A stretch of DNA of 33,348 nt from an uncultured Clostridia bacterium (GCA_937913075.1 CALEPU010000210.1:1-33348); one strand, 5' to 3'; shown: positions 10,922-33,348, numbered from the stretch's first letter. Notes: a model not told the origin generated them from the letters alone. Made by a program: numbers and translations.

Positions 10922-10951
10922 CGCTGTAAATTGATGACGAACAAAAACCGA

Positions 10952-14423: not shown

Positions 14424-14486
14424 CGCTTTCACAGATATTTCACCGCGCCGCAGGGCTTATGTAACAGCGATTTCACAATTTATTCA

Positions 14487-14515
14487 TTGAAACGACGAGC
14501 GGAATGTTGTATAAT
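14487..14515 (+). promoter_or_regulatory. Sigma-A promoter TTGAAA-17-TATAAT
   Basis: -35 at 14487-14492 and -10 at 14510-14515. This places the ORF-track start (14515) upstream of the transcript. Confidence 0.5.
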
Positions 14516-14547
14516 TGATTACAGACTTATTCTCGGAGGTAACAGAA

Positions 14548-15561: not shown

Positions 15562-15613
15562 TCACTCCCGCTGCTGCGGTTGATAAAAAATTCTATTTAC
15601 GGAGGATATTATT

Positions 15614-16159
15614 ATGAACAAAAAGTGGATCTGCCCCGTTTGCGGCTATGTACACGAGGGTCCTACTCCCCCCGAGTTCTGCCCCCAGTGCAGGGTTCCC
15701 GGCTCCAAGTTCAAGGAGCAGGCTGCCGAGATGAGCTGGGCCGCCGAGCACGTCGTCGGCATTGCGCAGGGCGTGCGTGAGGACATTTTGAACGACCTGC
15801 GCTCTAACTTCAACGGCGAGTGCAGCGAGGTCGGTATGTACCTTGCAATGGCAAGGGTCGCCTACCGCGAGGGCTATCCCGAGATCGGCCTCTATTGGGA
15901 GAAGGCTGCTTGGGAAGAGGCGGAGCATGCCGCCAAGTTCGCGGAGCTCCTCGGCGAGGTAGTGACCGACAGCACCAAGAAGAACCTCGAGATGCGCGTT
16001 GACGCCGAGAACGGCGCTACCGCCGGCAAGACCGACCTCGCAAAGCGCGCGAAGGAGCTCGGTCTTGACGCTATCCACGACACCGTCCACGAGATGGCAA
16101 GGGACGAGGCAAGGCACGGCAAGGCGCTCAAGGGGCTGCTGGACAGGTATTTCGGCTGA
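15614..16159 (+). CDS. rbr: Reverse rubrerythrin (N-terminal rubredoxin-like domain, C-terminal diiron ferritin-like domain)
   Basis: CPVCGYV...CPQC at the N-terminus. Diiron ligand helices [17 protein letters not shown] and [18 protein letters not shown]. Confidence 0.9.
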
Positions 16160-16195
16160 ACTTAAAAGCCGCTTAAATCAAGCACCTCCAAGGGG

Positions 16196-16225
16196 GAGGG
16201 GAGAAATCCTTTCCCTCTTATTTTG
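16196..16225 (+). terminator. Possible terminator of the rubrerythrin gene
   Basis: GAGGG(GAG)AAA-TCC-TTTCCCTC with a 3-nt bulge, followed by TTATTTTG. Confidence 0.4.
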
Positions 16226-16345
16226 TCCTTCGGCTGCTCCAAAAGTGCCCTTCGGCGCGTCCCGCTCCCTCTTCCAGTAGCAAAAAGGAGCTTGATAGTG
16301 TCCACGAAAAATGTGTCCCTGATTTTTGACTGATAGACAAAAGGA

Positions 16346-16366
16346 GAGCGGGGACGCGCCCCGCTC
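16346..16366 (-). terminator. Terminator hairpin downstream of the SHOCT gene
   Basis: GAGCGGGG-CGCGT-CCCCGCTC on the minus strand, followed by TCCTTTTGTCT, 16 nt after the stop. Confidence 0.55.
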
Positions 16367-16381
16367 CCATAAGTACAGTAT

Positions 16382-16993
16382 TTACAGTCCTAAAAGTTGT
16401 TTTTTCTTCGCATCAAACTCTTCCTGAGAGATAGCGCCATTGTCAAGCAGATCTTTGTATTTTTTAAGCTCGTCTGCATTACTTTGCAGGATTTCTTGCT
16501 TAATTGTAGAAGTTGCAGTAGGTTTGCTTTGTCTGTCAACCAAAAGTTTACTGATTGCTTCATGCAATTCATCACGATTTTTAAGCATTGCAAACTTTAT
16601 TGCACCAGAAGCAGTAGTAACAGCAAGCCCACTAAAAATACTTGTTCCAACAGCAGTGATTGAATCAAGTGGTAAATCGACCCTCTTTCCTGCTGCGTTA
16701 AGACCAAAAACCCGTTTATCAGTGACTGTGATTTGAACCTTTGACCATCTCTTATAAATGATAAATCCGATAATGGCCAGCACAATGATTGCAGGATAGA
16801 GTGCATAATTTGCGTCATTCCAGAAACCGAATCCAAGAAGAAAGCCCAGCTTATAATCATTCCATTGATTAGCAAAGCTTATTGATACTGAAAAGTTATA
16901 AATAATTGTGCCGATTAAGCCAATAATGGGTAAAAGCATGCAAAAGAGCTTTGAATCCTTCAATTCGCCCTTAATAATAGTTTTTTCTTCCAT
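16382..16993 (-). CDS. Membrane protein with a bacterial PH-like domain and a C-terminal SHOCT domain
   Basis: Two predicted TM segments. ITVTDKRVFGL...VDLPLDSITAV is a PH-like core. The C-terminal ELKKYKDLLDNGAISQEEFDAKKKQLLGL is the SHOCT signature. Start ATG 16993 is preferred (AAAGGGG 8 nt upstream); ATG 17011 is the alternative. AT-rich coding sequence. Confidence 0.8.
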   Translation of the reverse strand: MEEKTIIKGELKDSKLFCMLLPIIGLIGTIIYNFSVSISFANQWNDYKLGFLLGFGFWNDANYALYPAIIVLAIIGFIIYKRWSKVQITVTDKRVFGLNAAGKRVDLPLDSITAVGTSIFSGLAVTTASGAIKFAMLKNRDELHEAISKLLVDRQSKPTATSTIKQEILQSNADELKKYKDLLDNGAISQEEFDAKKKQLLGL

Positions 16994-17223
16994 GATAATC
17001 GCCCCTTTCATTTGTTATCAGTTAAATTTCGTACCGCCAACTGTATCGGCAGCGGTACGCCCTTCATTTGAATATACCTTGATACCGTATTTGCACTGCT
17101 GCCTATTTTACGACCAACAGTGACCTAAGTGCCTAACTCTTTATAGAGCCGCTACATCTCTACAATTTTAATTTTTACAGACGGATTATCAAACATATTT
17201 CCTCCCATGTTTTTTATGTTCTA

Positions 17224-17433
17224 CTAAAAATCCTTACCAAGGCAAAAAGAGCATGCCTTCGCAACCTTTTTCCCATCAGGAAGACAGTCTTTCGCCTCTT
17301 GAAAAGAATTGAACAATCGCATGTTGCCTTCTTGTATTTGGCTTAGTTTGCACCTGCCATCGGTCGAGCTTGCATCATGGATCGTCCTCGTACTTAAATT
17401 GAGCAAGTACGTCATCGTTTTTCTTTGTTCCAT
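17224..17433 (-). CDS. Small (69 aa) putative zinc-binding protein, H-x8-C...C-x2-C
   Basis: Strong SD AGGAGGAG 4 nt before ATG 17433. TIHDASSTDGRCKLSQI...AKACSFC. The longer 137-aa ORF would run through the leader structure and terminator. Confidence 0.6.
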   Translation of the reverse strand: MEQRKTMTYLLNLSTRTIHDASSTDGRCKLSQIQEGNMRLFNSFQEAKDCLPDGKKVAKACSFCLGKDF

Positions 17434-17445
17434 TATTCTCCTCCT

Positions 17446-17479
17446 ATAATAAAAAGTGGCACAGCCGAAGCCATGCCAC
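17446..17479 (-). terminator. Intrinsic terminator/attenuator inside the leader, 12 nt upstream of the small-protein SD
   Basis: The minus strand reads GUGGCAUGGC-UUCG-GCUGUGCCAC (10 bp, UUCG tetraloop) followed by UUUUUAUUAU. Confidence 0.6.
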
Positions 17480-17504
17480 CGAAAAATGCACAGCTCCGTT
17501 TGTT

Positions 17505-17621
17505 GCCACACAAACTTCCGACATGCCAAAACCAGATGCCCAAGTGGAACCTGCATTTTTGCCGAAAAGCAAAAACGCACCCGGTATTGGCCGATTGTCG
17601 GAAAGTATTCGTTTGTGTGGC
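17505..17621 (-). ncRNA. ~117-nt rod-like structured leader RNA (unclassified cis-regulatory element or small RNA)
   Basis: Nested complementary segments: GCCACACAAA/UUUGUGUGGC; UUCCGACA/UGUCGGAA; GCCAAUACCGGGUGC/GCAUCUGGUUUUGGC (with G-U pairs); and an inner hairpin GUUUUUGC-UUUUCG-GCAAAAAU. The 5' end coincides with the predicted TSS. Confidence 0.4.
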
Positions 17622-17627
17622 ATAAAT

Positions 17628-17656
17628 ATAATACCACAGCTTTGATGTGAACGCAA
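17628..17656 (-). promoter_or_regulatory. Sigma-A promoter TTGCGT-17-TATTAT with TG extension (minus strand)
   Basis: -35 at 17656-17651; -10 at 17633-17628, preceded by TGG. The predicted TSS is near 17621. Confidence 0.5.
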
Positions 17657-17692
17657 TACTCTTTTGAATTTTTTGTATCATGCAGATGTTAA

Positions 17693-17975
17693 AAAGGAAG
17701 GGCGCTCGCCCTTCCCCAGCTTGATGACAAAGCCCGTTTGCTGCCCTTCCCCTACAGAGGGGAAGGTGTCAACGAGCCTTTTAGGGCGAGTTGACGGATG
17801 AGGTGGTGGCTGGAGTTGTGTTCAAAAAACTTAGTAAAATCAAGAACTTCTACCACCTCTTCCACCGCTTCGCTGCGCTTGCGGTCCCCCTTCCCCTCGG
17901 TAGGGGAAGGTTGTATGCTTGCGTGCAAAAAGGGTTTGTCAGCGGTCTGAGGAAGGGCGCTCGCCCTTCCCTTTA
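17693..17975. repeat. ~285-bp imperfect palindromic element (MITE/REP-like) carrying four GC-rich hairpins
   Basis: GGAAGGGCGCTCGCCCTTCC at 17696-17715 and 17951-17970. CCTTCCCCT-nnnn-AGGGGAAGG at 17745-17766 and 17889-17910. GAGGTGGT (17811) pairs with ACCACCTC (17852). The arms align as inverted repeats (GATGACAAAGCCC vs GCTGACAAACCC) around a centre near 17833. Confidence 0.6.
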
Positions 17976-17977
17976 AC

Positions 17978-19021
17978 TTACAGATCGTTATCCTGATACG
18001 GGGTATCTTCGAGGCCTTCTTCCCTGAGCTTCTTCACCTTTTTATCAAGCGCGGGCTTCAACAGGTTTTTGAACCGATTCGTGCCGCCGAACAGTCTGAC
18101 GAGCGTTGGGCTGATAAAATAATATGTACGGATGAATGCACGTCCTCTGCTTGTTTCGGCAAGCCTTTGATCGCGGTAGCGTCTGAGCGTCCAAACCTCG
18201 GGGCAGTCGTAAGAGCCGTAGACGGCTGTAGCTATATAGCAGCCCGTCTTTTTTGCATTTAACGAGAATGACGGTTCGAACATCCTGATTTTAGATACAT
18301 GCTCTTTAATAGTCGCCTTGCCCGCGTCAACGTCGTCGGTCATATCTAACACGGACTTATGGATCGCGATCGCCTTCTTCCAGCAGGGCACGGCGTTCTC
18401 CTTTGCGTATTCGCTGCCGAGCTGCTCCATGATACCGTCGCCGAACCTATAAAGGAGCTGCGCGGCGGACATACTGACGGCGGCGTGCTGCTGTGTGCTC
18501 TCGATTGCTGGCTCTTCCTCGGCTTTGTATTCGGTCTCGGAGCTTTCAAAGATATCTTCCGCGAACTCCAAGGTCCTTTCGCGCACTTCCTTAACGGCGT
18601 CAGCGCGGTCTTCGGAAGCCTCGACCTTTTCCTTGATGAGGGACAGTATGATATCGTCCATTTTCGAGAGCCTTTTCGCGGCGAGCTCGGGCTCCTCCTC
18701 GGCACTTTCCTGCGCCCGGTAATAGGCGGAATACAGGCATGCCTCCCAGCATGAAGGATCTTTGAGCAATATCTGTTCATAGTATCTGACGGCTCCGGGA
18801 GCGTCATCGGCAAAGCGCGCTCTCCTTGCGAGCACGAAAAGGTTTTTGAGCTCCTGCGACCGATCTATACTGACGGAGCCCTTGACGGTGACCGTCCCCT
18901 CGACAAACAGCTTCCTTGCCTCTTCAACGGTGTACTTCGTGCCGCACGATTGGCAGACGTAATAGCCGTTCTCCTTTATTATATCGTTGCTCGTGCACAT
19001 TTCACATTTGAGTGGGTTCAT
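17978..19021 (-). CDS. Hypothetical protein: N-terminal zinc ribbon, helical acidic middle, conserved C-terminal Cys-containing module
   Basis: CEMCTS...CQSCG ribbon. C-terminal GCYIATAVYGSYDCPEVWTLRRYRD...GRAFIRTYYFISP motif. GGAGG SD 6 nt upstream. Confidence 0.75.
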   Translation of the reverse strand: MNPLKCEMCTSNDIIKENGYYVCQSCGTKYTVEEARKLFVEGTVTVKGSVSIDRSQELKNLFVLARRARFADDAPGAVRYYEQILLKDPSCWEACLYSAYYRAQESAEEEPELAAKRLSKMDDIILSLIKEKVEASEDRADAVKEVRERTLEFAEDIFESSETEYKAEEEPAIESTQQHAAVSMSAAQLLYRFGDGIMEQLGSEYAKENAVPCWKKAIAIHKSVLDMTDDVDAGKATIKEHVSKIRMFEPSFSLNAKKTGCYIATAVYGSYDCPEVWTLRRYRDQRLAETSRGRAFIRTYYFISPTLVRLFGGTNRFKNLLKPALDKKVKKLREEGLEDTPYQDNDL

Positions 19022-19195
19022 CAGCCGCCTCCGTTGCCGTGTGATTGAAGCCGTCAGGGATCAAAAGAGCTCTTCAAGTATTTTAATCCAAAGCAAGGAG
19101 GCTGTCAACAAAGGCGGGGGTCAAATTTCGGCTGTACTTTTAGGCGCGCTTGCGGTATAATGTATCAATGAGATTTGTATTGCAAGGAGCAATCA

Positions 19196-20002
19196 ATGAA
19201 ACGGGTACTTGGCTGCATCCGCAGAGCGGATGAACGATACGGATTGATACACGATGGGGACAGCATTTGCGTGGGCGTAAGCGGCGGCAAGGACAGTCTT
19301 TTGCTTTTATACGGGCTGACGCTTTACAAGATGTTTTCTAAAAAGCATTACGAGGTACGAGGCGTGATGCTCGACCTGGGGCTTGTGGAGCAGGACTACA
19401 CCGCTCTTTTAGACTGGGCTGAGAGCGTAGGAGTACAGCTCGAGATATTGAAGACGGACATTGGCGACGTGGTATTCAACGTGCGCAAGGAGAAGAACCC
19501 ATGCGCCTTATGCGCCAAGTTCCGCAGGGGCGCTCTCAACACAGCCGCGCGCGAACGAGGCTGCAATCTTATCGCACTGGGGCATAACCGTGAGGACGTT
19601 TTGGAGACTTTTCTTCTGAGTCTGTTTTACGAGAGCAGGCTCAATACCTTTGCGCCGGTAACCTATATGGACAGGATGGACGTTACCATAATACGACCGC
19701 TCGTCTTCTTCCCCGACAAGGAGGCGCTATCGGCTGCGCGGCGCTTGGGACTGCCGGTGCAGAAGCCTAACTGTCCCGTGGCGGGCTTTACCAAGCGCGA
19801 GGAGATGAAAAACCTTTTAAAGGATTTCCGCCGAATAGTGCCCGATCCGGAAGAAAGGCTGATGAAGGCGATATCGGATGTGAGTCAGTACGGAATGTGG
19901 GACAGGATGAAGCTGCCTCCCAACGCACTTACGGGTCGCGAGCCGCAGTTGTTTGATACCGAAAGCTACAAGCTGAGCAAGGAGAACCAAGATGGAAGAT
20001 AA
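19196..20002 (+). CDS. PP-loop ATPase, TtcA-like tRNA thiolation enzyme family
   Basis: PP-loop VGVSGGKDS; Cys motifs NPCALCAKFRRG and KPNCPV. Start ATG 19196, with AAGGAG 7 nt upstream. Confidence 0.8.
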   Translation: MKRVLGCIRRADERYGLIHDGDSICVGVSGGKDSLLLLYGLTLYKMFSKKHYEVRGVMLDLGLVEQDYTALLDWAESVGVQLEILKTDIGDVVFNVRKEKNPCALCAKFRRGALNTAARERGCNLIALGHNREDVLETFLLSLFYESRLNTFAPVTYMDRMDVTIIRPLVFFPDKEALSAARRLGLPVQKPNCPVAGFTKREEMKNLLKDFRRIVPDPEERLMKAISDVSQYGMWDRMKLPPNALTGREPQLFDTESYKLSKENQDGR

Positions 20003-21392
20003 GAGCAGGATCAATTTTGAGGACACTAATCTTATTGATACGGCAAAGATACGCGAGAGCGCTGAAAAAGCCGCGGCGGACAGCGAGTCCGGCGCCTCTG
20101 AGCCTGAGCTGACGCTCTTTGAGGACGTTGCTCAGAAGGAGCAGGAGCTTGTACAGCGGGACGAGAACCGTCGCAAGGCTCGCACTGCCATGACCGCGAT
20201 AATCTGCGGACTTGCGGGGCTTTTGCTCGGCATCGGGCTGACGCTGCTGCTGGTAGGCATTGAATGCGGCGGGCTCGACAAGCTGCGTTCCGTCAAGCTC
20301 ATGGGCGAATATGATTCCTCGCTTTTCAGCGAGCTGTTATACCGCATCGAGACTCTGCACTTCGGTGAGACGCCTTCCGCCGAGGAGCTGAAAAACGCCG
20401 CCGCGCACGCCATGGTCGACGCTGTCGGCGACAGGTACGCGGCTTATTTCAGCAAGGAGGAGTACAGCGATTACATTTCGAGCATAAACGGCAACATCAA
20501 GGGAGGCGTCGGCATTTCGGTATATGCTCCTGACGAGAACGGAGCGCTAATACACAGGGTCTACGAGGGTACCTTTGCCGATCAGGCAGGCGTAAGATCG
20601 GGCGATATAATAATCGCTCTTGACGGCGTTGCCGTGGGCGGCAAGACGATCGACGAGCTTGTTGACATGATAGGCGGAGACGAGGGCACGACGGTAGAAT
20701 TTACCGTCAAGCGCGGAGACGAAACGCTGAGCATGGACGTTATGCGCGGCAACGTGTACATTAAGCGGGTCGAATACTTTATGCTCGACAACGGCATGGG
20801 GTACTTATATCTCTCCTCCTTTACGGGCGAAGCGGAAAACGAGTTCCGTGCGGCACTCGACGATCTTGAGGCTAAGGGTGCGACGGCTCTTGTTATCGAC
20901 CTGCGCGACAATCCCGGCGGCAGCCTCAGCACCGTCGTCAATATCTGCGACATGCTGCTGCCTCAGTGTACGATAGCCTCAATGCGCGGCAACACTACCG
21001 ACCCGACGCAGTATTTTTACTCCGACGCGGCGATGTGCGCTCTTCCCTTTGCGGTGCTTGTTAACGACGGCTCCGCCTCCGCGAGCGAGATATTCGCCGG
21101 CGCAATGCAGGACAACGGCAGGGCGAAGATAATCGGCACGCAGACCTATGGCAAGGGCATAGTGCAGACTACGTTTACATTAAACGACGATCACGGCTAT
21201 ATCAAGCTCACCACGGACGCTTACTTTACGCCCAACGGCACGAGCCTTTCCGGCACAGGCGTCACTCCCGACATAGTTGTGGAGCTGCCGGAGGAGCTGC
21301 AGGGCGCCGACGTTTACACTCTCTACACCCAATACCGCGACAGTGATACCCAGCTTAACGCTGCTATAGAGCTGCTGACGAAGGGCGAATAA
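19992..21392 (+). CDS. S41 family C-terminal processing peptidase with TM anchor and PDZ domain
   Basis: PDZ GVRSGDIIIALDGV; catalytic region DLRDNPGGSL and NDGSASASEIFAGAMQDNGRAKIIGTQTYGKG. It overlaps the previous gene by 11 nt. Confidence 0.9.
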   Translation: MEDKSRINFEDTNLIDTAKIRESAEKAAADSESGASEPELTLFEDVAQKEQELVQRDENRRKARTAMTAIICGLAGLLLGIGLTLLLVGIECGGLDKLRSVKLMGEYDSSLFSELLYRIETLHFGETPSAEELKNAAAHAMVDAVGDRYAAYFSKEEYSDYISSINGNIKGGVGISVYAPDENGALIHRVYEGTFADQAGVRSGDIIIALDGVAVGGKTIDELVDMIGGDEGTTVEFTVKRGDETLSMDVMRGNVYIKRVEYFMLDNGMGYLYLSSFTGEAENEFRAALDDLEAKGATALVIDLRDNPGGSLSTVVNICDMLLPQCTIASMRGNTTDPTQYFYSDAAMCALPFAVLVNDGSASASEIFAGAMQDNGRAKIIGTQTYGKGIVQTTFTLNDDHGYIKLTTDAYFTPNGTSLSGTGVTPDIVVELPEELQGADVYTLYTQYRDSDTQLNAAIELLTKGE

Positions 21393-21481
21393 CAAAAAGA
21401 ATAACACGAATCGGAGCTTTGACCCATACCCCTCCCCCTTCAGGCGGGGTACGGGCATTTGCGCTTTGAGCGGAGGAAAAG

Positions 21482-24400
21482 ATGTCTACAAAAAACGTGC
21501 TTGAAATATTGCATAACAGCGGCGAATACATGCGTCTTATCGAAGCCTTGCGGCACGGAGAGGGCGCTTTGAGCGTGTTCGGGCTCGGCGAGGCGCAGAG
21601 GCTGCACACGGTGAGCGCGCTGTATTCCGATATGGAAGGCGCATTGATGCTCGTTGCACCGAGCGCCGCCGCTGCGAACCGTGTTCATGAGGAGCTCTCG
21701 CAATACTGTGAGGATGCGCTGCTCTTCCCGCCGCGGGAGCTGCCGCTCGCCGTTCAGCACTACACGGAGTCTCCCGCGACAGCGGCGCAGAGGCTTACCT
21801 GTATGGAGCGGCTTATATCCGGCGGCAAGGTGTTGATAGTGACCTGCATCGAGGCGCTGATGCAAAGGATGGCGCCGCCCGAGCTCATTACGGATGCTAC
21901 GCACACCGTTCGCGTCGGCATGAGGATACAGCCGGATGCGCTGTTAAAAAAGTTTATAGACGCGGGCTATGTGCGGGAGGAGCTTTGCGAGGGGCGCGGG
22001 CAGGTGACCAAGCGCGGAGCATATATCGACATATATCCGCTCACCGCAAAAAATCCTGTGAGAATTGAGTTTTTTGACGACGAGATCGACACCCTCAGAG
22101 AGTTTGACCCTATAACTCAGCGGTCGATCGAAAACATAGATTTTGCGGTGATACCGCCTGCGACGGAGCTGCCCCTGACGCAGGAGCTCAAAAGGCGCGG
22201 CATTGCGGCGCTTCGCGATAAGCCGCGCTATGCCGAGGAGACCGAGATGCTGCGTGCCGGCGGCACGCCCGATAACGCTTTGATGCTGCTGCCGGTATTC
22301 TGCCGTGAGGAAATAAGCCTTTGCGATTATCTTGAAAAGGACGCTGTGATCGTGATAGACGAGCCCTCCCGCGCGGAGGAGAGCGGCAAGCTCGTATTCA
22401 ATGAGTTTCTTTCGGGGCTTTCCTCGGTGCTTGCCGAGGGCAGCGGGCACGAAAAGCAGGAGGGCTTGGTACACTCTGCTCTCGATACGATAACTCGTCT
22501 CGACACAACGCGCACGGTTATGCTCTTCTCCCTGACACGAAGCTACGGTTTGATACGTTCGAAGGGGCTGTTTAAATTTGAGACGCGTCCCGTTTCGCGT
22601 TACATGGGCAGGATAGAGCTTCTGCGCGACGACGTTGCGCTCTGGCGGCAAAAGGGATACACTGTGCTGCTCTACGCGGGGCAGCACGCAAGGAGACTTC
22701 ACGACAGCCTTTCCGATCTTGATACCGAGCTCGCCTACGCCGAAAGCCTCGACCGCGCCTTTGTGCCGCGTGAGTGCATAATAATCGGCGAGTCCATACC
22801 GCGCGGGTTCGAGTACCCGGAGCTGAAGCTCGCCGCAGTATCGGAATACGAGATATACGGCACAGAAACGAGGGCAAAGGCGCATCCCGCAAAAAAGCGC
22901 GCAGCGCTTGCCTTTACCGAGCTTGAGGTGGGTGACCTTATAGTTCACGAGGCGCACGGAATAGGAAGATTTACCGGCGTCAAGACGCTGACTGTTGACG
23001 GCAGATCGCGCGATTATATCGAGCTTGCCTACCTTGCGGGCGACAAGCTTTTTATACCGACAGATCAACTGGACCGCGTACAGAAGTACATCGGCGGCGA
23101 CGAGGGCAAGACCAAGCTTTCAAAGCTCGGCTCGGGCGAATGGCAGAGGACTGTCGCACGATCGCGCGAGAGCGCAAGAAAGCTCGCATTTGACCTTGTT
23201 GCGCTCTACGGGCAGAGAAGCCGCATCAAGGGGCATGCCTTTTCAAAGGACACCCCGTGGCAGACGAGGCTCGAAGCGAGCTTTCCCCACACGGAGACGG
23301 CGGATCAGCTCACAAGTATTGCAGAGATAAAGGCCGATATGGAGAGCACGCGGATAATGGACCGTCTGCTCTGCGGCGACGTCGGCTACGGCAAGACGGA
23401 GGTTGCGCTGCGAGCCGCCTTCAAATGCGCCATGGACGGCAAGCAGTGCGCGGTGCTGGTGCCTACGACCATACTCGCCCAACAGCACTACAACACCTTC
23501 TCATCGCGCTTTGCGGGGTTCCCTGTAAATGTTGAGCTTTTATCGAGGTTCAGGACGGAGCATGAAGCGGCTTTAATAAAGGAGCGGCTGAAAAAGGGCG
23601 ATATCGACGTGATAATCGGCACTCATTCCCTGCTTGCGAAATCGGTCAAATTCCACGATCTCGGGCTTTTGATAATCGACGAGGAGCAAAGATTCGGGGT
23701 CAATCACAAGGAGCAGATCAAGGAGCTTAAACGGACTGTCGACGTGCTGACGCTCTCCGCGACGCCGATACCCCGCACGCTGCACATGAGCCTTGCCGGG
23801 ATACGCGACATGAGTGTTATCGAGACTCCGCCGGAGGCAAGGTATCCGGTACAAACGATCGTCTGCGAATACAACGAGGCTATGGTCCGAGAGGCTATAC
23901 TGAAAGAGACAGCAAGAGGCGGTCAGGTATACTTCGTTTACAATATAGTCAAGACGATGGAGCTGTTTGCGGGCAAGCTTTCCGAGCTCGTGCCTGAGGC
24001 GCGGGTCGCCTATGCCCACGGGCAGATGAGCGAGCGTCAGCTTGAACGCACTATGCTCGATTTTATGGAGGGCAAATACGACGTGCTGCTGTGCAGTACC
24101 ATTATTGAAAGCGGTCTCGATATCACCAACGTCAACACGATGATAGTGTACGACGCGGACAAGATGGGGCTGTCACAGCTTTATCAGCTTCGCGGCAGGG
24201 TCGGCAGGGGCGCAAGGCTCGGTTATGCCTATCTCACCTTCCGTCACGACAAGGTGCTGACGGAGATAGCCGACAAGAGGCTGACTGCTATCCGTGAGTT
24301 CACACAGTTTGGCGCGGGGTTCAAGATAGCCATGCGCGACCTTGAAATAAGGGGCGCGGGCGACGTTTTGGGCGCGGAGCAGTCGGGGCACATGGCTGAG

Positions 24401-24964
24401 GTCGGCTATGAGCTTTACTGCAAGCTCATTGGCAACGCCATAAAGGAGGCTAAGAACGAGCCGATCGTTCCCGAGCTCGACGCCGTTATGGAAATACCGC
24501 TCGACGCGCACATACCGCCAAAGTACATCCCAAGAGAGCAGGGCCGCATTGCGATGTACAAGCGAATCGCTGCTATCACCGACCTCGATACGCTGCGCGA
24601 CGTGGAGGATGAGCTTATCGACCGCTATGGCGATATACCCAAGCCCGTTATGAATTTGCTTGAAATATCGCTCTACAAGGCAAGGGCTGAGGCATTGGGG
24701 CTTGCAGCAGTCTCGGTCAAAGCCGAGGAAGCGAAGCTTACCTTCGCGCCTGAGGCCAAGCTCGATCCTGCGGCGTTCATGCAGGCTGTCGCCTCAACAG
24801 AGGGCGCGCAGGTGCTGACGAAAAAGTCCGGCTCCGGCGATAGCGGCGTAACGACTCTGCTTTTGATAAAGCGCAGGCACAGAACGCAGGAGGCTATGTT
24901 TGAAGCCGCAAAGGAAGCTATCGACCTTTTGCTTTCGTGCGTGAAGAGACACGAGGAGATCTGA
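21482..24964 (+). CDS. mfd: Transcription-repair coupling factor
   Basis: 1160 aa. UvrB-homology N-terminus, RNAP-interaction region (GDLIVHEAHGIGRF), SF2 motifs GDVGYGKTEVA, DEEQRFG and QLRGRVGR, and a TRCF C-terminal domain. Confidence 0.95.
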   Translation: MSTKNVLEILHNSGEYMRLIEALRHGEGALSVFGLGEAQRLHTVSALYSDMEGALMLVAPSAAAANRVHEELSQYCEDALLFPPRELPLAVQHYTESPATAAQRLTCMERLISGGKVLIVTCIEALMQRMAPPELITDATHTVRVGMRIQPDALLKKFIDAGYVREELCEGRGQVTKRGAYIDIYPLTAKNPVRIEFFDDEIDTLREFDPITQRSIENIDFAVIPPATELPLTQELKRRGIAALRDKPRYAEETEMLRAGGTPDNALMLLPVFCREEISLCDYLEKDAVIVIDEPSRAEESGKLVFNEFLSGLSSVLAEGSGHEKQEGLVHSALDTITRLDTTRTVMLFSLTRSYGLIRSKGLFKFETRPVSRYMGRIELLRDDVALWRQKGYTVLLYAGQHARRLHDSLSDLDTELAYAESLDRAFVPRECIIIGESIPRGFEYPELKLAAVSEYEIYGTETRAKAHPAKKRAALAFTELEVGDLIVHEAHGIGRFTGVKTLTVDGRSRDYIELAYLAGDKLFIPTDQLDRVQKYIGGDEGKTKLSKLGSGEWQRTVARSRESARKLAFDLVALYGQRSRIKGHAFSKDTPWQTRLEASFPHTETADQLTSIAEIKADMESTRIMDRLLCGDVGYGKTEVALRAAFKCAMDGKQCAVLVPTTILAQQHYNTFSSRFAGFPVNVELLSRFRTEHEAALIKERLKKGDIDVIIGTHSLLAKSVKFHDLGLLIIDEEQRFGVNHKEQIKELKRTVDVLTLSATPIPRTLHMSLAGIRDMSVIETPPEARYPVQTIVCEYNEAMVREAILKETARGGQVYFVYNIVKTMELFAGKLSELVPEARVAYAHGQMSERQLERTMLDFMEGKYDVLLCSTIIESGLDITNVNTMIVYDADKMGLSQLYQLRGRVGRGARLGYAYLTFRHDKVLTEIADKRLTAIREFTQFGAGFKIAMRDLEIRGAGDVLGAEQSGHMAEVGYELYCKLIGNAIKEAKNEPIVPELDAVMEIPLDAHIPPKYIPREQGRIAMYKRIAAITDLDTLRDVEDELIDRYGDIPKPVMNLLEISLYKARAEALGLAAVSVKAEEAKLTFAPEAKLDPAAFMQAVASTEGAQVLTKKSGSGDSGVTTLLLIKRRHRTQEAMFEAAKEAIDLLLSCVKRHEEI

Positions 24965-24994
24965 ATAGTCATTAGGAGATCTAACGGAGGAAAA

Positions 24995-26317
24995 ATGTAC
25001 GAAGAACTTATAAACGCTGTCAGGAACGATCTTATCCCCTCGCTCGGCGTGACCGAGCCGGGAAGCATCGCCTTTGCCGCCGCTTCCGCAGCGCGCGCTT
25101 TGGGCGGCAGAGTAACGCGGGTGAAGGTGCGGCTCAATTCCTGCATTTACAAGAACTCGTTTACCTGCGCCGTGCCCGGAACGGACGGAATGGGCTGTGC
25201 CTTGGCGGCGGCTTTGGGCGCTGTTTGCGGCGACCCATCAAAAAAGCTGATGTCGACGGAAGGCGCGACGAACGCGGATATTGCGGAGGCAAAGCGGCTT
25301 GTAGAAGCAGGGGCTGCGACCGCGGAGCTTATCGGTATCTCCCCTGATATACTTATAGAGGCGGAAGTCGAGACCGAGAACGGAACGGCGAAGGCTGTTG
25401 TCGCCGGCAGGCACGACAGGCTTGTGAAGCTGACGGTAAACGGGCAGGAAATACCGATGGCAGATGTCGAATCCTCGGCAGAAGCCTACGAGGTAAAGGT
25501 ATCCTCATATTCCCTCTCGGAGCTTCTTAACTGCGTCGAGGGCGCCGAAGGGCTTGAATTCCTTTCCGACGCAGTTAAGATGAACATGGCGTTGTATGAC
25601 GAGGGCAAAAAGCAGGGGCTCTTGGCGCTCACCGGCGCAAGATTTATCACGGACGAGCCATGTCCTTCCGCAGAGAAATTTGCGGAGCTTCTGACCTGCG
25701 GCGCGATAGAGGCGCGGGTACGCGGGGCTTCGGCGCCCGCTATGGCGATAACGGGCAGCGGCAGTCACGGGATACTCTGCACGCTGCCGGTATTTGCGGC
25801 ATATGTCTTTTCGGGCGTAAAGACCGAGCGGGATCTGCACGACGATGAGCCGACCCTTCGCCGCGCACTATTGCTCTCCTGTCTTATAACAAAGTACATA
25901 AAGGAGCTTTCGGGGCTTTTATCCACTGCCTGCGGGTGCGTGCTCGCGGGAGGCACCGGCGCGGCTTTGGGGATAACCTATGTTTTGAGCAAGCGCCTCT
26001 TCCCCGCCGCTTCGAGGCATGAGCTTATTGAGCGGCTTACGAATGCGCTGAGCTCAATGGCGGCTTCCGTCACGGGTATGATATGCCACGGCGGAAACAC
26101 GGGCTGCTCGTTAAAGGCTGCTGTCGGCGTCAATATGGCGTTCAGCGCGGCAGAAATGGCGCTTGCGGGGCAAGGAGCCGAGAGCGTGCACGGTATACTG
26201 GGACACACACCTGAGGAGACCATGCGAAACATGGGGCGCGTGGCGGCGGATATGCTGCCCTTGGAAAGCACCATAGTCGATATAATGAATTGTAAAGCGA
26301 AGCAAAAGCTGATATAA
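24995..26317 (+). CDS. UPF0597/YhaM-type serine dehydratase-like protein (L-cysteine desulfidase family)
   Basis: The N-terminal PSLGVTEPGSIAFAAA motif and ~440-aa length are typical of the family. GGAGG SD. Confidence 0.85.
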   Translation: MYEELINAVRNDLIPSLGVTEPGSIAFAAASAARALGGRVTRVKVRLNSCIYKNSFTCAVPGTDGMGCALAAALGAVCGDPSKKLMSTEGATNADIAEAKRLVEAGAATAELIGISPDILIEAEVETENGTAKAVVAGRHDRLVKLTVNGQEIPMADVESSAEAYEVKVSSYSLSELLNCVEGAEGLEFLSDAVKMNMALYDEGKKQGLLALTGARFITDEPCPSAEKFAELLTCGAIEARVRGASAPAMAITGSGSHGILCTLPVFAAYVFSGVKTERDLHDDEPTLRRALLLSCLITKYIKELSGLLSTACGCVLAGGTGAALGITYVLSKRLFPAASRHELIERLTNALSSMAASVTGMICHGGNTGCSLKAAVGVNMAFSAAEMALAGQGAESVHGILGHTPEETMRNMGRVAADMLPLESTIVDIMNCKAKQKLI

Positions 26318-26351
26318 TAGCGTCAGCGAAACCAAAAATACGGAGGCGCGT

Positions 26352-26756
26352 ATGGAATACATTGATTTTGGAAGCACCGGTATGAGGGTATCGAGAGTAG
26401 GCTTCGGCGGGATACCCATTCAGAGGATAGATGAGGAAGGCACTGCCGTTCTTATTGAGAAGCTTTTAGCCTGCGGCGTCAATTATATCGACACCGCAAG
26501 AGGCTACACAGTCAGCGAGGAATACATCGGGTACGCCATAGAAAAGCTCGGCTGCCGCAGCAAGCTTTATCTTGCTACAAAAAGCATGGCGGCTGACAAG
26601 GCTGGCATGGAGGCTGATATCGCGCGCAGCATGAAAAACCTGCGCACCGATTATATAGACCTCTATCAGCTCCACAATCCCGGAATGGCAAAGCTCGACA
26701 CGATACTTGCGGAAGGCGGAGCCTTTGAAGAGCTGATTGAAGCAAAGGCGGCAAAA
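26352..26756 (+). pseudogene. Aldo/keto reductase, N-terminal ~134 codons only (cut at the seam)
   Basis: GMRVSRVGFGGIPIQR, NYIDTARGY, YIDLYQLHNP and LIEAKAA, then the AKR similarity stops mid-barrel. GGAGG SD upstream. The end coordinate is approximate. Confidence 0.8.
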
Positions 26757-26768
26757 ACTAGCGTGAAT

Positions 26769-28256
26769 GATTTGAAATTACTTTTCATTGTTTTTTTTAT
26801 TTGCATTTTTATCCTGCTAATGCAATTTGTATGGATGCACATTAAAGATTTGGTGGGAAAAGGTGTAGAAATAAAAGTTTTGGCAGAGTTTTTCGTTTAT
26901 GCGGTAGCCTCTGTTGTGCCTCTTGCTCTGCCACTCGCAATCTTGCTTGCTTCGCTAATCTCGTTCGGCAATCTTGGTGAGAAATTCGAACTCACGGCGA
27001 TGAAATCAGCGGGTATATCTCTCTTTCGAATAATGCAGCCTTTGACTATCGCTGTTGTAGTCATTTCTCTCGGGGCGTTTTATTTTTCCAATAATGTTCT
27101 TCCCACGTCTCAGGTTAAGCTGTGGGCTTTGATTTTCTCATTGCGTCAGAAATCACCGGAGATGGAGATACCGGAGGGTGAGTTTTACGACGGGATACCG
27201 GGATATAATATCTATGTCCGGCACAAAGATCATAAGACCGCCATGCTCTATGATATGATGATCTATGACTATTCGCACGGATTTCAGAACGCTAAAGTAA
27301 TGGTCGCTGATTCGGGCAAGATATATTTCACGGAAGATAAACATTATTTGCTTTTGAATCTGTATAGCGGCGAGTCGTTTGAGAATTTGGATGTGCAGCA
27401 GCAGAAGGCGACGAAGACGAAGGATAAGATACCCTATCGCAGGGAGTCGTTTTCGGAAAAGCAGATGCTGATTGATTTCTCTACTGAGTTCAATCGTTAT
27501 GACGAGTCGGTATTGCAAGATCAGCATGTGTCAAAAAATGTGGTAGAGTTGGTGGAATCGATAGATTCGGTAAATGTGTTGGCGCATATTCGCAGTGGCG
27601 AGCAGAGTGCTCAGATGGTGAAGGACAGATATTTCGGCAGGGAGAGAAAGGCGGGGCAGCAAGTGGTAGAGGCAAGTGAGATAGACAAGCAAGTTCAAAA
27701 CGGATACAAGTTCAGCAGTGTTGACAGTATGTATGCGGCATTGACTTCGACGCAAAAGGAGAAGGCTCTTCAGACTGCTATCGATAAGGCAAAGGCGATG
27801 CAGGATCAGTTTGAGTATAATGCCATTATGCTTGACGAATATAAGCGTTATGTGAGAAAGCACGAAATAGAGTTGCACCGCAAATTCACTTTGGCTTTTG
27901 CGTGCCTCATTTTCTTCTTTATCGGTGCCCCTCTCGGTGCCATTATCCGCAAGGGCGGACTCGGAGCACCGGTGGTTATCAGTGTGATAATGTTTATTAT
28001 CTATTATATCATTGATAATACGGGATATAAGATGGCGCGAGAGGCTTTATGGCCGACATGGGCAGGTATGTGGCTGTCATCGTTTGTGTTGCTGCCAATA
28101 GGCATTTTCCTGACATATAAGGCCGCTGCGGATTCCGCTCTATTCAATCCGGAAGCATGGATCAAGGTATGGGACAAAATCAAAACAGGAGTACGGAATT
28201 CACGGAACAATATATTTAGAGAACGTAAGTTACAGAAAAATAATAATTCAAAATGA
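26769..28256 (+). CDS. LptF/LptG (YjgP/YjgQ) family LPS-export permease, long Bacteroidota form, 5'-truncated at the seam
   Basis: [26 protein letters not shown]...[35 protein letters not shown]...[19 protein letters not shown]. About 15 N-terminal residues are missing. The start coordinate is approximate. Confidence 0.85.
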
Positions 28257-29488
28257 ATACAATAGAAGAGGCTGTTGCCGACATTAGAGACGGTAAATTC
28301 GTAATTGTTGTGGACGATGAGGATAGGGAGAATGAAGGTGATTTCATTATTGCCGCTGAGCATATCACGCCCGACAAGGTCAATTTTATGCTCAAGTATG
28401 GTAGGGGTGTTCTTTGTGCACCAATAACGGAAGAGCGTTGTGCAGAACTTGGTCTTATTCATCAGGTTCAGCAGAATACATCCATGCTTGGTACGCCGTT
28501 TACCATAACGGTTGATTATCTGCCGGGCTGTACGACCGGCGTATCTGCCCACGATAGGGCAACTACTATTCGCGCCCTTGCTGACCCGCAGTCCAAACCT
28601 CAGGATTTCGGCAGACCCGGACATATCAATCCTCTCTATGCCAAATCTAACGGCGTGTTGCAGCGAGCCGGACACACGGAAGCTGCTATTGACCTGTGTA
28701 AGTTGGCAGGTCTGACACCTGCTGCCGCGCTTATCGAGATTATGAATGAAGACGGCACGATGGCGCGGATGGCACAGTTAGAACAAGTGGCAGCAGAGCA
28801 TCAGTTGAAAGTGATATCCATCAAAGACCTTATTGCCTATAGATTGCAGAGTGTCAGCGGTAATGACTCTGCCACGCCATGCAATGTAGAGCAGGAATTT
28901 TTGGTGGAGAAAGGTGTTACAGTAACTTTGCCGACTCAATATGGCAATTTTATGCTTACTCCTTTCCGGCAACTCTCTAACGGATTAGAGCATATAGCAC
29001 TCGTGAAAGGTGATATAGGTGATAAGCCTGTATTATGCAGAGTACATTCGTCGTGTATGACAGGTGATATATTCGGTTCACTCAGGTGCGAGTGCGGTGA
29101 ACAACTGCACAAGGCAATGCAGATGATCGAAAAAGAAGGCAGAGGTGTTATAGTATATATGAACCAAGAGGGGCGCGGAATAGGGCTGATGAAGAAGATT
29201 GAGGCGTATGCTCTGCAAGAGCAAGGACTTGATACCGTAGAGGCAAATGTCCACCTCGGTTTCGACCCCGATGAAAGAGACTACGGCGTCGGAGCGCAGA
29301 TACTGAAACTGCTCGGCGCAACTAAATTGAGATTGATGACCAATAACCCCGTTAAGCGCGTAGGCTTGGAGTCATACGGCATTCAAATCGTTGAAAATGT
29401 GCCAATCGAAATAGCCCCCAATAAGTATAATAGGCGATATATGCTGACGAAGAAAGAAAAGATGCATCATAATCTGCATCTTGTGTGA
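28253..29488 (+). CDS. ribBA: Bifunctional 3,4-dihydroxy-2-butanone-4-phosphate synthase / GTP cyclohydrolase II
   Basis: [12 protein letters not shown] and RAGHTEA (DHBP synthase). [18 protein letters not shown] and NQEGRGIGL (GCH II). ATGA overlap with the upstream stop. Confidence 0.93.
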
Positions 29489-29554
29489 GAAAAGCACTTC
29501 GTAAATACGCCGAGAGTAAAACAGAGGGGATAAGGTATTTGTTAAAAGCGAGAG

Positions 29555-30070
29555 ATGAAAATAGGAATAATAGGTCCGGAGTCAGTAGGTAAAACTCGTT
29601 TGTCACAGCAACTTGCGCAGTATTTCAACGGAATCGTTGTGCCTGAGTTCGCAAGAGAGTATGTGGAGCAACTCGGCAGGCCGTACAATTATGAGGATGT
29701 CTGTTATATAGCTGAGCAGAATAAAAACTATTGCTTATCTCAAGATAAGACTGTATTTTTTGATACCGAATTGATTGTAACAAAGGTGTGGCTTGATGAG
29801 GTCTATCACAGAAGACCTTCATGGATAACCGACCCGATCCCCGAAGATTACCAAATGGACGTGTATCTTCTTCTGTATCCTGATATTGAATGGGAACAAG
29901 ATTCGGTTAGAGAAAACGGTGCACAAGAGAGAAGAATGGAATTATTTGAATGTTACAAAAAAGAGGTAGAAGCAACGAAGAAGCCGTTTGCAATAATATG
30001 CGGTCAAGGCGAAACGAGAATGTGGAATGCTCTGTCGGCTATACAAGAATGTGACATTTTGGCACACTGA
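29555..30070 (+). CDS. AAA_28-type ATPase (NadR C-terminal kinase-like)
   Basis: Walker A GPESVGKT, followed by VPEFAREY and FFDT motifs typical of the family. Confidence 0.7.
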   Translation: MKIGIIGPESVGKTRLSQQLAQYFNGIVVPEFAREYVEQLGRPYNYEDVCYIAEQNKNYCLSQDKTVFFDTELIVTKVWLDEVYHRRPSWITDPIPEDYQMDVYLLLYPDIEWEQDSVRENGAQERRMELFECYKKEVEATKKPFAIICGQGETRMWNALSAIQECDILAH

Positions 30071-30173
30071 CGGTAATTGGCAAGAAAATTGTGCGTGCTG
30101 ATGTAGAAACGAGTACGGAAAACGGAAAGTGAGGAAAACGGAAAGTACGAATTTTTTAGATAAATATAAAATT

Positions 30174-30743
30174 ATGGACGAGATAAAAAACGAAGAGAAT
30201 ACCGCTATGGATGTAGAGCAGGTAGAAACTGAAAAAGTGGAAGAGACCTCAGTTGCAGCCGATGCGGCAGAGGCTACAGAAGAGGAAACTCTCGAAAAGC
30301 AACTTAGTGATGCCAACGTTGAGATTGCTGATTTGAAAGACAAGAATCTCAGAATGATGGCAGAGTTTGATAATTTCCGCAGGCGAACGGCAAAAGAGAA
30401 ACTTGATATTCAGAAGAATGCCGGCGAGCGTATTTTTATTGATATGCTCTCGCTTATTGACGACTTCGAGAGAGCGGAGCAAGCAATGAGAAAGACGGAT
30501 GATATTGATGCCGTGAAACAAGGTGTTGAGCTTATTCATAAGAAGTTTATTACCTTCCTTCAGGATAACGATGTCAAGGAGATAGCCACAGAGGGCGAGT
30601 CGTTTAATACCGACCTGCACGATGCTATCACCACACTAAGCGCAGGTGAAGAAAACAAAGGTAAGATTATCGACTGCACACAAAAAGGTTATACTCTTGG
30701 AGATAAGGTGATACGCTTTGCCAAGGTGGTTGTGGGAGAATAG
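30174..30743 (+). CDS. grpE: Nucleotide exchange factor GrpE
   Basis: Acidic N-terminus, then NLRMMAEFDNFRRRTAKE and a C-terminal beta domain (GYTLGDKVIRFAKVVV). Start ATG 30174 is preferred over the GTG at 30129. Confidence 0.9.
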   Translation: MDEIKNEENTAMDVEQVETEKVEETSVAADAAEATEEETLEKQLSDANVEIADLKDKNLRMMAEFDNFRRRTAKEKLDIQKNAGERIFIDMLSLIDDFERAEQAMRKTDDIDAVKQGVELIHKKFITFLQDNDVKEIATEGESFNTDLHDAITTLSAGEENKGKIIDCTQKGYTLGDKVIRFAKVVVGE

Positions 30744-30827
30744 GTGTAAGTTATGGGTGTTCGGCTATTAAGCCGTGAATTTAATGAGTGATTAAGTTAT
30801 TAGTGATTAGTGATAAGAGATAATATT

Positions 30828-32000
30828 ATGGCTAAGAGAGATTACTATGAGGTGCTTGATGTCGCCAAAACGGCTACGGCAGAAGAGATAAAAAAAGCTT
30901 ATAGGAAAAAAGCTATTCAATATCATCCTGATAAGAACCCCGGCGACAAGGATGCAGAGGAAAAGTTTAAGGAAGCCGCTGAGGCATACGAGGTGCTGAG
31001 CGACCCGCAGAAGCGTGAGCAGTACGATAGATTCGGCTTTGCCGGACTCGGCAGCGCAGGCTATGGGGGACAGCAGATGGATATGTCGGATATCTTTGCT
31101 AAATTCGGTGATTTATTCAGCGATCTGTTAGGTGGCGGCGGAGGAGGAAATTTCCATGTCAATTTCAACGGACAAGAGTTTCAGTTTGGCGGCGGTGGCA
31201 GCAGACGGCAAAGGCGTGGTAGTGACCTGCGGATAAAGGTGAAGGTGACGCTTGAAGAAGTGGCAACCGGAGTTGATAAGAAGGTGAAGGTGAAGAAGAT
31301 GGTTGCTTGCCCGCAATGCCATGGTTCAGGTAGTGCCGACGGACAGACAGAGACCTGCTCAACCTGCAAAGGCTCCGGCAGAATACAACGCACAAGGCAA
31401 GGTATTTTCGGCTTGCAAGTAGTCCAAGAGATGTGTCCTGACTGCGGTGGTGAAGGTAAAAAGATTAAGAATAAATGTCCGCGCTGCAATGGCGAAGGCA
31501 TAGTTCGCGATGAGGAGATAATAACTATCCATATTCCTGCCGGAGTAGCAGAGGGTATGCAACTTACCGTTTCAGGCAAGGGCAATGCTGCGCCGCGTGG
31601 CGGTGTCCCCGGGGACTTGCTCGTGCTGATAGAAGAAGAGGAACATAAAGAACTTATAAGAGACGAATGTAATCTTATCTATAATCTTCTCCTCTCTGTA
31701 CCTACTGCCGCCTTAGGCGGACAAGTGGAGATACCATCGCTGCAAGGGCCGCTGAAGATTAATATACCGGAAGGAACGCAGCCGGGAAAGGTGTTGAGAC
31801 TAAGAGGCAAAGGGCTGCCGCAGATTGACGGATACGGCAGGCAGGTAATGCAAGGTGACTTGCTCGTGAATATAGGGGTTTATATACCTGAAAAATTGTC
31901 GAAGGAGGAGAAGAAGTGGTTTGAAAAATTCTCCGATTCGCCAAACGCTGCACCCGGCTCTGCCAATAAACGCAGTTTCTTCCATAACCTCTTCGGATGA
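30828..32000 (+). CDS. dnaJ: Molecular chaperone DnaJ
   Basis: J domain [10 protein letters not shown]...YHPDKNP; G/F region; four CxxCxGxG zinc motifs ([32 protein letters not shown]). Confidence 0.95.
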
Positions 32001-32063
32001 AACTATATGTAAATATCCTGACTTCAAGAAAAATTCAGCATTTTCTCGTAGTTTTAGTTATGT

Positions 32064-32091
32064 GTCTCCGAGTATGTCCATACTCGGAGAC
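32064..32091 (+). terminator. Hairpin downstream of dnaJ
   Basis: GTCTCCGAGTAT-GTCC-ATACTCGGAGAC, followed by TTTGAC. Confidence 0.5.
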
Positions 32092-32268
32092 TTTGACTAT
32101 CTATGGGGTGGATACTCTGACCGAGTTTACCTTCGAGGAGAACAGAGAGGAGTTCTGCAATGACGCTCTGTATCCGGAGAGGATGATGGGTGAACCTCAA
32201 ATATGAATTTTAATAAGTTTTTGAAAAAAAACTTGTGTAATCAAGAAAATAAAATTATCTTTGCAAAT

Positions 32269-32817
32269 ATGTCATATACAGCAAAAAATAAGGCAGATAA
32301 CCCTATGCTGAGGATGACGATGTCGTTCGGGGTATCAACGGGACTATGGATAGGTGCTAAATTTATACTCAATGCGCTGAGCATAAATCACGCTTGGGTG
32401 GGAATTGTAGTGTGGCTTGTGAATCTGTACATCCTGTTTTTGTTCTACTCTTCTACTTTGATATATCGCTTTAGAGAAAAGGGCGGAAATATATCGTTTT
32501 CAGAGGCGTATTCTTTCATCTTATTGTTAATGTTTTTCAGTGCGATTATCGCTGCTGCGGTAAGGTGGATATATCTCTCGTTCTTTGATTCTTCGTATCT
32601 GAGTCTGATGTACGAGCAAACAATGCCGGTGCTCGAAAAGATGATGCCCGCAGAAATAGATGAGGTTGAGATGCGTCTGAGAGAATTTCTTGTGCCTATT
32701 AGGTTCTCTCTGTTCTACATATTCTACGACCTTATTGTCGCTTCCGTTTTAGGACTTATTCTTGCGCCTATCGTAAGAAAGAGCAAGAATATCTTGCCCG
32801 ACGATTTCGAAGATTAA
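32269..32817 (+). CDS. DUF4199-like multi-pass membrane protein (start uncertain)
   Basis: Four hydrophobic segments, ~180 aa. Its position directly upstream of a GT2 gene matches the DUF4199-GT2 pairing common in Bacteroidota. A TAnnTTTG -7 box at 32256-32263 argues against the ORF-track start at 32203; ATG 32305 is an alternative start. Confidence 0.6.
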   Translation: MSYTAKNKADNPMLRMTMSFGVSTGLWIGAKFILNALSINHAWVGIVVWLVNLYILFLFYSSTLIYRFREKGGNISFSEAYSFILLLMFFSAIIAAAVRWIYLSFFDSSYLSLMYEQTMPVLEKMMPAEIDEVEMRLREFLVPIRFSLFYIFYDLIVASVLGLILAPIVRKSKNILPDDFED

Positions 32818-32902
32818 ATGGTCTTTAAATGGTCTTTAAATGGTCTTTAAATAGTCTTTAAATAGTCTTTAAATGGTCTTTAAATAGTCTTTAAATTATC
32901 TT
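32815..32902. repeat. Tandem repeat, 8 copies of an 11-bp unit TAAAT(G/A)GTCTT
   Basis: Units start at 32815, 32826, 32837, 32848, 32859, 32870, 32881 and 32892 (the last is degenerate, TAAATTATCTT). The first unit contains the upstream stop codon. The array ends 14 nt before ATG 32917. Confidence 0.95.
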
Positions 32903-32916
32903 AAAATCCCATATTA

Positions 32917-33348
32917 ATGTTGGATATTTCAATAGTAATACCGCTATATAACGAGGCAGAGTCGCTGCCTCACTTGTTCGAGTGGATAGAGCGCGTTATG
33001 GCTGAGAATAGATTTCAGTATGAAGTCATTTTTGTCAATGATGGTTCAACAGATAACTCTTGGTTGGTAATAGAAACCCTGAAGAAGCAGCACAGTGAGG
33101 TGGTGAGAGCCATTTCGTTCCGTCACAACTACGGCAAGAGTGCTGCCCTGTATTGCGGTTTTAAGGCTGCGCAAGGAGAAGTGGTTATCACTATGGATGC
33201 CGATATGCAGGACTCCCCTGACGAGATACCGGAACTCTATCGTATGATTAAGGAGGACGGTTACGACCTTGTCAGCGGCTGGAAACAAAAGCGATATGAT
33301 AATGCTCTGACAAAGAATCTTCCGTCAAAACTATTCAATGCAACAGCA
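32917..33348 (+). CDS. Family 2 glycosyltransferase (DPM1/ArnC-like), 3' end outside the window
   Basis: Hand translation is open to the window end: MLDISIVIPLYNEAESLPHL...VIFVNDGSTDNS...ITMDADMQDSPDEIP...SGWKQKRYD. It is not in the ORF track because no stop is reached. Confidence 0.85.
   Translation, partial: MLDISIVIPLYNEAESLPHLFEWIERVMAENRFQYEVIFVNDGSTDNSWLVIETLKKQHSEVVRAISFRHNYGKSAALYCGFKAAQGEVVITMDADMQDSPDEIPELYRMIKEDGYDLVSGWKQKRYDNALTKNLPSKLFNATA

Follow-up and report, generated by a model that had tools for sequence, protein, structure and literature searches.

The window analysed here, a single whole metagenome contig of 33,348 nt that is continuous and contains no Ns, is very probably a three-piece assembly chimera, in which a segment of a Clostridia chromosome (block A) is joined through a short bridge from a third locus (B) to a segment of Paludibacteraceae DNA (block C). 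Its anatomy is A, then B, then C, with three sources and two joins. The seam consists of two junctions 38 nt apart, at 26753/26754 and 26791/26792. A first-pass annotation of this DNA had described two genes cut at one point; that description has to be amended, as the two cuts are separate and are spanned by a 71-nt bridge from a third locus, which is new with respect to the earlier reading. The interpretation that annotation preferred, an assembly chimera rather than an inter-phylum insertion, is supported by the native contexts found elsewhere, by the collinearity of block A with a Clostridia relative and by the overlaps at the bridge. The seam is that of an ordinary chimeric contig and is not a biological feature.

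The two sides of the seam come from different organisms, the left being collinear with the Clostridia MAG GCA_017541305.1 and the right being Bacteroidales. A sliding GC profile falls from ~0.56 to ~0.44 across the seam, and taken whole the left block has a GC content of 0.534 and the right block one of 0.440. Canonical tetranucleotide profiles of chunks of the left block correlate with the Clostridia MAG at r=0.86-0.88 and with Bacteroidales flanks at 0.30-0.47, the corresponding values for the right chunks being 0.18-0.33 and 0.82-0.90, and the correlation flips inside one 3-kb step at the seam. Shine-Dalgarno sequences (GGAGG/AAGGA) precede the well-defined starts of the left block and none of five starts on the right. 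Hence GC content, tetranucleotide usage and Shine-Dalgarno usage all change at the seam, and together with the relatives found for each side they bear out the two-organism seam read in the first-pass annotation. That annotation had named GC and tetranucleotide profiles as a check, and both, when run, change abruptly at this place. Its five hand counts of GC are exact (66.7, 51.7, 50.0, 31.7 and 48.3%), its contrast of Shine-Dalgarno sites on the left with none on the right holds for the well-defined left starts and the five right starts, and the individual landmarks that it listed are also present: a dockerin protein (11027..13480, minus strand) and a lipobox lipoprotein (14515..15561) on the left, and on the right a TAnnTTTG box (TATCTTTG, 32256-32263) within a block of core housekeeping genes in which we find the truncated lptF, ribBA, grpE and dnaJ.

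Block A (1..26753, plus strand) is assigned to a Clostridia-type genome by gene order, blastn and tetranucleotide composition (r=0.88 to GCA_017541305.1). It encodes a dockerin protein, a lipoprotein, a rubrerythrin, a TtcA-like PP-loop protein and an S41 peptidase, together with Mfd, an SDH-alpha-like protein and the N-terminus of an aldo/keto reductase (AKR), domains having been assigned with Pfam. From 17.4 to 26.75 kb the gene order matches that of contig JAFXZJ010000028.1 of the Clostridia MAG, which shares with the window the succession of a zinc-ribbon protein on the minus strand, the PP-loop protein, the S41 peptidase, Mfd, the SDH-alpha-like protein and the AKR. The blastn alignment between the two runs at 69-78% identity from position 17440 and stops exactly at 26753.

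The AKR gene (26352..26753, plus strand, PF00248) is truncated to residues 1-134, ending ...ELIEAKAA, and the Aldo_ket_red match covers just positions 3-129 of the 291 in the Pfam profile. The best homologue among the matches listed, a protein from ‘MAG: Clostridia bacterium’ that is 76% identical, has a query coverage ending at residue 134; in the AKR alignment homology is gone past this residue, and a codon-by-codon comparison with JAFXZJ010000028.1 agrees. Beyond residue 134 other AKR homologues read GKIGHIG, and the intact AKR of the Clostridia MAG and of other homologues continues ...EAKAAGKIGHIGLTAHS with no break at this point. The Pfam match and the alignment to the MAG contig therefore agree with the earlier view of a Clostridia-type AKR cut mid-domain at residue 134 (~26753). 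The four left-block proteins looked up in a collection of 15 billion proteins are present solely on the 33,348-nt contig, and an exact-protein look-up of the fusion open reading frame and three left-block proteins found no copy on any other contig; hence block A has no near-identical reference in the collections searched, the best relative having ~70% DNA and 76% protein identity. As a separate observation, the same AKR gene in the nearest Clostridia relative is itself cut by a contig end, at residue 213 (10001..10640 of JAFXZJ010000028.1). The region downstream of the AKR may thus be hard to assemble in this lineage, and this may explain a free end of block A open to mis-joining.

Block C (26792..33348, plus strand, GC 0.44) is a Paludibacteraceae (Bacteroidales) housekeeping segment that extends to the contig end, its genes as identified with Pfam being the truncated lptF, ribBA, an AAA_28/NadR-like kinase, grpE, dnaJ and a DUF4199 gene. 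It matches three contigs from independent assemblies at 99.3-99.6% identity, the differences being 16-31 scattered SNPs; the three are ERZ842392 NODE_1553 (L001), ERZ842375 NODE_345 (L002) and a Logan contig of run ERR1278104 (L003). The second of these is the same contig as CAKZZM010000085.1 (L060) of ‘uncultured Bacteroidales bacterium ERR1278072_bin.1’, a MAG of the GTDB collection, to which the right side of the window is 99.5-100% identical. The other 58 relatives, found among species genomes, are Paludibacteraceae or Bacteroidales MAGs with LptF proteins 50-83% identical. The identity of the window to the three near-identical contigs ends abruptly at 26791/26792, and all three run on leftward into native genes, namely the N-terminal part of lptF and then cdd, upstream of which the references carry HAD, NUDIX, TonB-dependent receptor, MFS, MerR, SLT/LysM, DUF5683 and ParB genes.

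The first gene of block C is a member of the lptF/lptG permease family (26792..28256, plus strand, PF03739) that retains residues 23-509 of a native protein of 509 aa. The native gene starts at a TTG (position 8475 of L002) overlapping the cdd stop, and encodes MRIIKKIDTYLLKNFLGLFLLT followed by FFICIF...; MRIIKKIDTYLLKNFLGLFLLT is the conserved LptF N-terminus of 22 residues that is absent from the window copy. Among 59 related loci, cdd lies immediately upstream of lptF in 52 and ribBA directly downstream in 55, and the N-terminal motif IKKIDxYLLKxFLGL is kept in 56 of the 59 related LptF proteins. Given this conservation of the native N-terminus and of the cdd-lptF-ribBA order, the window lptF is a 5'-truncated copy of a conserved housekeeping gene. 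Two details of the earlier reading shift accordingly: the permease, which had been read from ~26769 and thought to lack about 15 residues, begins at 26792 and has lost 22. We also observed that in the reference records (L002 at 8475..8478, and L008-L066) the gene caller began lptF at an internal ATG, giving 473 aa, while in the Paludibacteraceae references the true start lies further upstream, at a TTG, GTG or ATG overlapping the stop of cdd, and gives 509 aa. As the conserved N-terminus lies upstream of the annotated ATG, LptF is systematically mis-started in these records.

The bridge (26732..26802, 71 nt, minus strand) is 100% identical, as the reverse complement, to positions 399..469 of contig FLNY01001700.1 (GCA_900089705.1). 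There the stretch comprises 14 nt of upstream sequence and the first 19 codons of a lipoprotein-like gene (ORF 413..1633, 406 aa), in reverse orientation relative to the window, and an OMP beta-barrel gene lies next downstream. An exact scan of a metagenome collection with the bridge returned this one contig, and a scan of GTDB species genomes gave 0 matches; the complete A-B-C junction was seen in no other record, the exact bridge scans having given the native B locus only. The sequence is carried also by a contig of the MEGAHIT assembly ERZ922529 (run ERR1278104, PRJEB12797, ‘bioreactor metagenome’). A relative of the lipoprotein gene (L067) sits among TonB-receptor, Por_Secre_tail and OMP beta-barrel genes, and on the strength of this gene neighbourhood the bridge derives from a Bacteroidota-type genome. 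Run ERR1278104 contains both the B gene and block C, showing that these two sources co-exist in one sample of the project. The window itself probably comes from bioreactor project PRJEB12797, where the references for B and C occur; a literature search found no publication describing the project.

Within the bridge three parts can be told apart. The first 22 nt (26732..26753, strand not applicable; GCTGATTGAAGCAAAGGCGGCA) are the overlap of A and B, being identical to B and encoding the AKR residues LIEAKAA. When compared with the Clostridia relative this string shows differences at third codon positions, mostly synonymous with one I to M change, and this pattern, taken with the conserved coding of LIEAKAA, suggests that the 22-mer would be native to A as well as to B. 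The next 38 nt (26754..26791, minus strand, 26% GC; AAAACTAGCGTGAATGATTTGAAATTACTTTTCATTGT) belong to B only and match neither the AKR nor lptF. The last 11 nt (26792..26802, strand not applicable; TTTTTTTATTT) form a T-rich overlap of B and C, as seen in a three-way alignment of the window, the reverse complement of FLNY01001700.1 and L002. Assuming uniform bases, the chance that a blunt join would show such shared strings is ~6e-14 for at least 22 nt and ~2e-7 for at least 11 nt.

Two other readings of the 38 nt were considered. A second copy, which would be a sign of duplication or inversion by template switching, was sought in the window and in L001-L003; none was found, only chance matches of up to 10 nt. 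Translated, the stretch also loosely resembles NFLGLFLLTFF and could have been a divergent LptF N-terminus. This was rejected on the grounds that it is 100% antisense of the start of the lipoprotein gene, and is further ruled out by the N-termini of related LptF proteins, which read IKKIDxYLLKxFLGL. The corresponding residues 135-147 of the window reading frame are read from the antisense strand of a region that codes for a signal peptide, and their resemblance to a transmembrane helix is only apparent.

The two truncated genes and the bridge are read through by a chimeric open reading frame of 634 aa (26352..28256, plus strand) made up of AKR residues 1-134, 13 antisense-derived residues and LptF residues 23-509; Pfam finds Aldo_ket_red first and then LptF_LptG at residues 141-590. 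This frame is a chance in-frame, artefactual read-through. To stay open it needs the right phase (~1 in 3) multiplied by the chance of no stop in 13 codons, which is unremarkable. The frame resembles a natural multidomain fusion protein in being uninterrupted and in carrying two Pfam domains (PF00248 and PF03739). It differs in that both domains are cut, the AKR at profile position 129 of 291 and LptF within TM1, half of which is missing, and in that the linker is the antisense of an unrelated gene. Furthermore, the LptF domain PF03739 occurs in 0 of the 120 AKR homologues listed, and the architecture is repeated neither in these nor in the 59 lptF loci. The complete domains and recurrence expected of a natural AKR-LptF fusion were thus not seen in the 120 AKR matches listed or the 59 lptF loci, and the exact 634-aa protein is on no other contig on record.

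Native continuation across the breakpoint is seen for block C in L001, L002/L060 and L003, and for the bridge in FLNY01001700.1 and the ERZ922529 contig. For the breakpoint of block A there is a relative of 70-78% identity only, in which the AKR reads through. From these contexts we infer that the join originated in the assembly graph, where the assembler path would have run from one genome into two others within a single short-read contig. Starting in the Clostridia chromosome, the path would exit block A inside the AKR via the 22-nt string that matches the antisense of the lipoprotein 5' end, follow B for 38 nt, and leave B for C via the T-rich string of 11 nt that also occurs at codons 23-26 of the Paludibacteraceae lptF. 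It would then follow C for 6.5 kb up to the contig end, the 634-aa reading frame being a by-product. If so, block A taken alone would either end at the break or continue into ...EAKAAGKIGHIG...

Tens to hundreds of 21/22-mers are expected to be common to a 3-Mb genome and 100-500 Mb of sequence from the rest of a metagenome, and assemblers take wrong turns at such k-mers when the native continuations are thin. The 22-nt overlap would suit an assembler that works through several k values, as metaSPAdes and MEGAHIT do, at its k=21 stage, and sister contigs bear NODE_ and k127_ names. The 11-nt overlap, shorter than the usual k, would suit error k-mers arising in the T-run, or else a heuristic that closes tips or gaps. 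The SPAdes gap closer takes overlaps of ~10 nt.

Of the misassembly types in the CAMI benchmark metagenomes, inter-genome translocation is reported to be the most prevalent (PMC9661791). The window resembles the inter-genome translocations of short-read metagenome assemblies, as classed by metaQUAST and metaMIC (PMC9661791), in several respects: its composition switches abruptly between two sides from different phyla, its joins fall at short exact shared strings with genes cut on both sides, and its parts are intact elsewhere, C and B as such and A in a relative of ~70% DNA identity with an intact AKR. It differs in being three-part, with a bridge of a third locus of which 38 nt are unique, and in having an overlap of 11 nt that is below the usual k.

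The same joins could have been made in vitro during library preparation, if the PCR switched templates or the amplification jumped at microhomologies and the product was then assembled faithfully. The exact 22- and 11-nt microhomologies are as expected of a template-switch product, and 11 nt lies below any normal k of a de Bruijn graph. However, two switches within 71 nt of one molecule would be required and this rare molecule would have to outweigh the native continuations of all three genomes, whereas a short third-genome piece acting as a graph bridge is a typical signature of assembly. We therefore regard an in-vitro origin as improbable; it too would be an artefact, of the wet laboratory and not of the graph.

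The first-pass annotation had left the choice between a chimera and a concatenation, and of these the chimera stands while plain concatenation does not. Concatenation would mean that two or three finished contigs were pasted together during scaffolding, by a tool for binning or merging, or in data handling. Both main blocks do end within genes, as is usual for contig ends, but the joins contain no N gap and are not blunt, lying at exact overlaps of 22 and 11 nt, and no 71-nt ‘contig’ would be available as a unit to paste. These overlaps disfavour concatenation, and we consider it very improbable.

The remaining alternative is a real integration, in which a Clostridia cell captured at least 6.5 kb of a Paludibacteraceae chromosome, along with 38 nt of filler derived from a different Bacteroidota gene, through illegitimate recombination at microhomologies that disrupted the AKR. 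Signatures of mobility were searched for at the seam. No direct or inverted repeats beyond chance were found between 26000 and 27600, tRNA and Rfam scans found no tRNA near the seam (the sole tRNA of the window is at 917-990), and Pfam found no integrase or transposase, the flanking genes being those for the SDH-alpha-like protein, AKR, LptF and RibBA. The same absence of repeats, att sites, integrase and transposase had been noted from the sequence at first reading, and the repeat, tRNA and Pfam scans agree with it. There is also no second border at which host sequence resumes, block C reaching the contig end at 33348, and the reference contigs that match C go on in Bacteroidales genes.

Like a horizontally acquired genomic island, the window has a block of foreign composition and taxonomy adjoining native genes. 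Unlike such an island, it has a border without integrase, att site, tRNA or IS and shows one border only, its cargo is housekeeping and not accessory, both border genes are cut mid-domain, and block C is nearly the same in sequence as a genome assembled from the project that also yielded B. Thus, although microhomology and filler DNA can arise in illegitimate recombination and the window sequence is unbroken, we hold a real integration to be extremely improbable: its cargo would be useless or untranslatable in a monoderm and has no Shine-Dalgarno sites before its genes, the composition of block C is wholly unameliorated and its sequence is 99.3-99.6% that of Paludibacteraceae assemblies from the project that also holds B, the contig shows no return into Clostridia or mobility element at the seam, and the junction recurs in no other record. 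Were the junction nevertheless physically real, housekeeping DNA would have passed between phyla very recently, into a Clostridia cell in the reactor, and would still be unameliorated.

With the three-piece assembly chimera as the preferred reading, the seam carries no biological weight, since there is here neither a fusion enzyme nor an inter-phylum transfer. Its relevance is to database hygiene, as the contig is held in the NCBI and ENA collections. If a binning step placed it in a Clostridia MAG, protein databases would receive a false AKR-LptF protein of 634 aa, and 6.5 kb of Bacteroidales genes (grpE, dnaJ, ribBA and lptF) would stand within an otherwise Clostridia contig. Automated screens could then take the contig for a spectacular case of horizontal gene transfer, or for evidence that a Gram-positive organism has LPS-transport genes. 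The contig is also a worked example of how a 38-nt bridge from a third genome, with shared strings of 22 and 11 nt, suffices to join two phyla in a short-read assembly.

Some further features of the Clostridia block lie away from the seam. Near its left end are two different DDE_Tnp_1_6 transposase C-terminal fragments (105..572 and 1860..2261, both on the plus strand) with a mutual identity of 27%. The contig starts inside the first of them, and so its left end probably marks the boundary of an IS-type repeat. Between them is a tRNA-Trp(cca) gene (917..990, minus strand), and a 26-nt direct repeat (753..778 and 911..936, 92% identical) has its second copy overlapping the tRNA 3' end. This partial duplication of a tRNA 3' end, 158 nt apart and beside transposase remnants, could have been left by an old integration as an att-like scar.

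An 841-aa open reading frame on the plus strand (10985..13510) has no Pfam match and mirrors the 817-aa gene at 11027..13480 on the minus strand, which has a signal peptide, repeats and a C-terminal dockerin; the plus-strand frame is almost certainly a spurious antisense ORF. The tetranucleotide profile of the dockerin-gene region is itself odd, correlating at r=0.44 with the Clostridia reference and at 0.19 with the Bacteroidales one. Finally, a low-GC islet (~16200..17500, GC 0.39-0.44) lies within the surrounding Clostridia sequence of 0.53-0.57 GC and encodes a membrane protein with a SHOCT domain (16382..17011, minus strand). The synteny shared with the Clostridia MAG begins only at ~17440, and the stretch could represent either a variable region or a small islet that was acquired.
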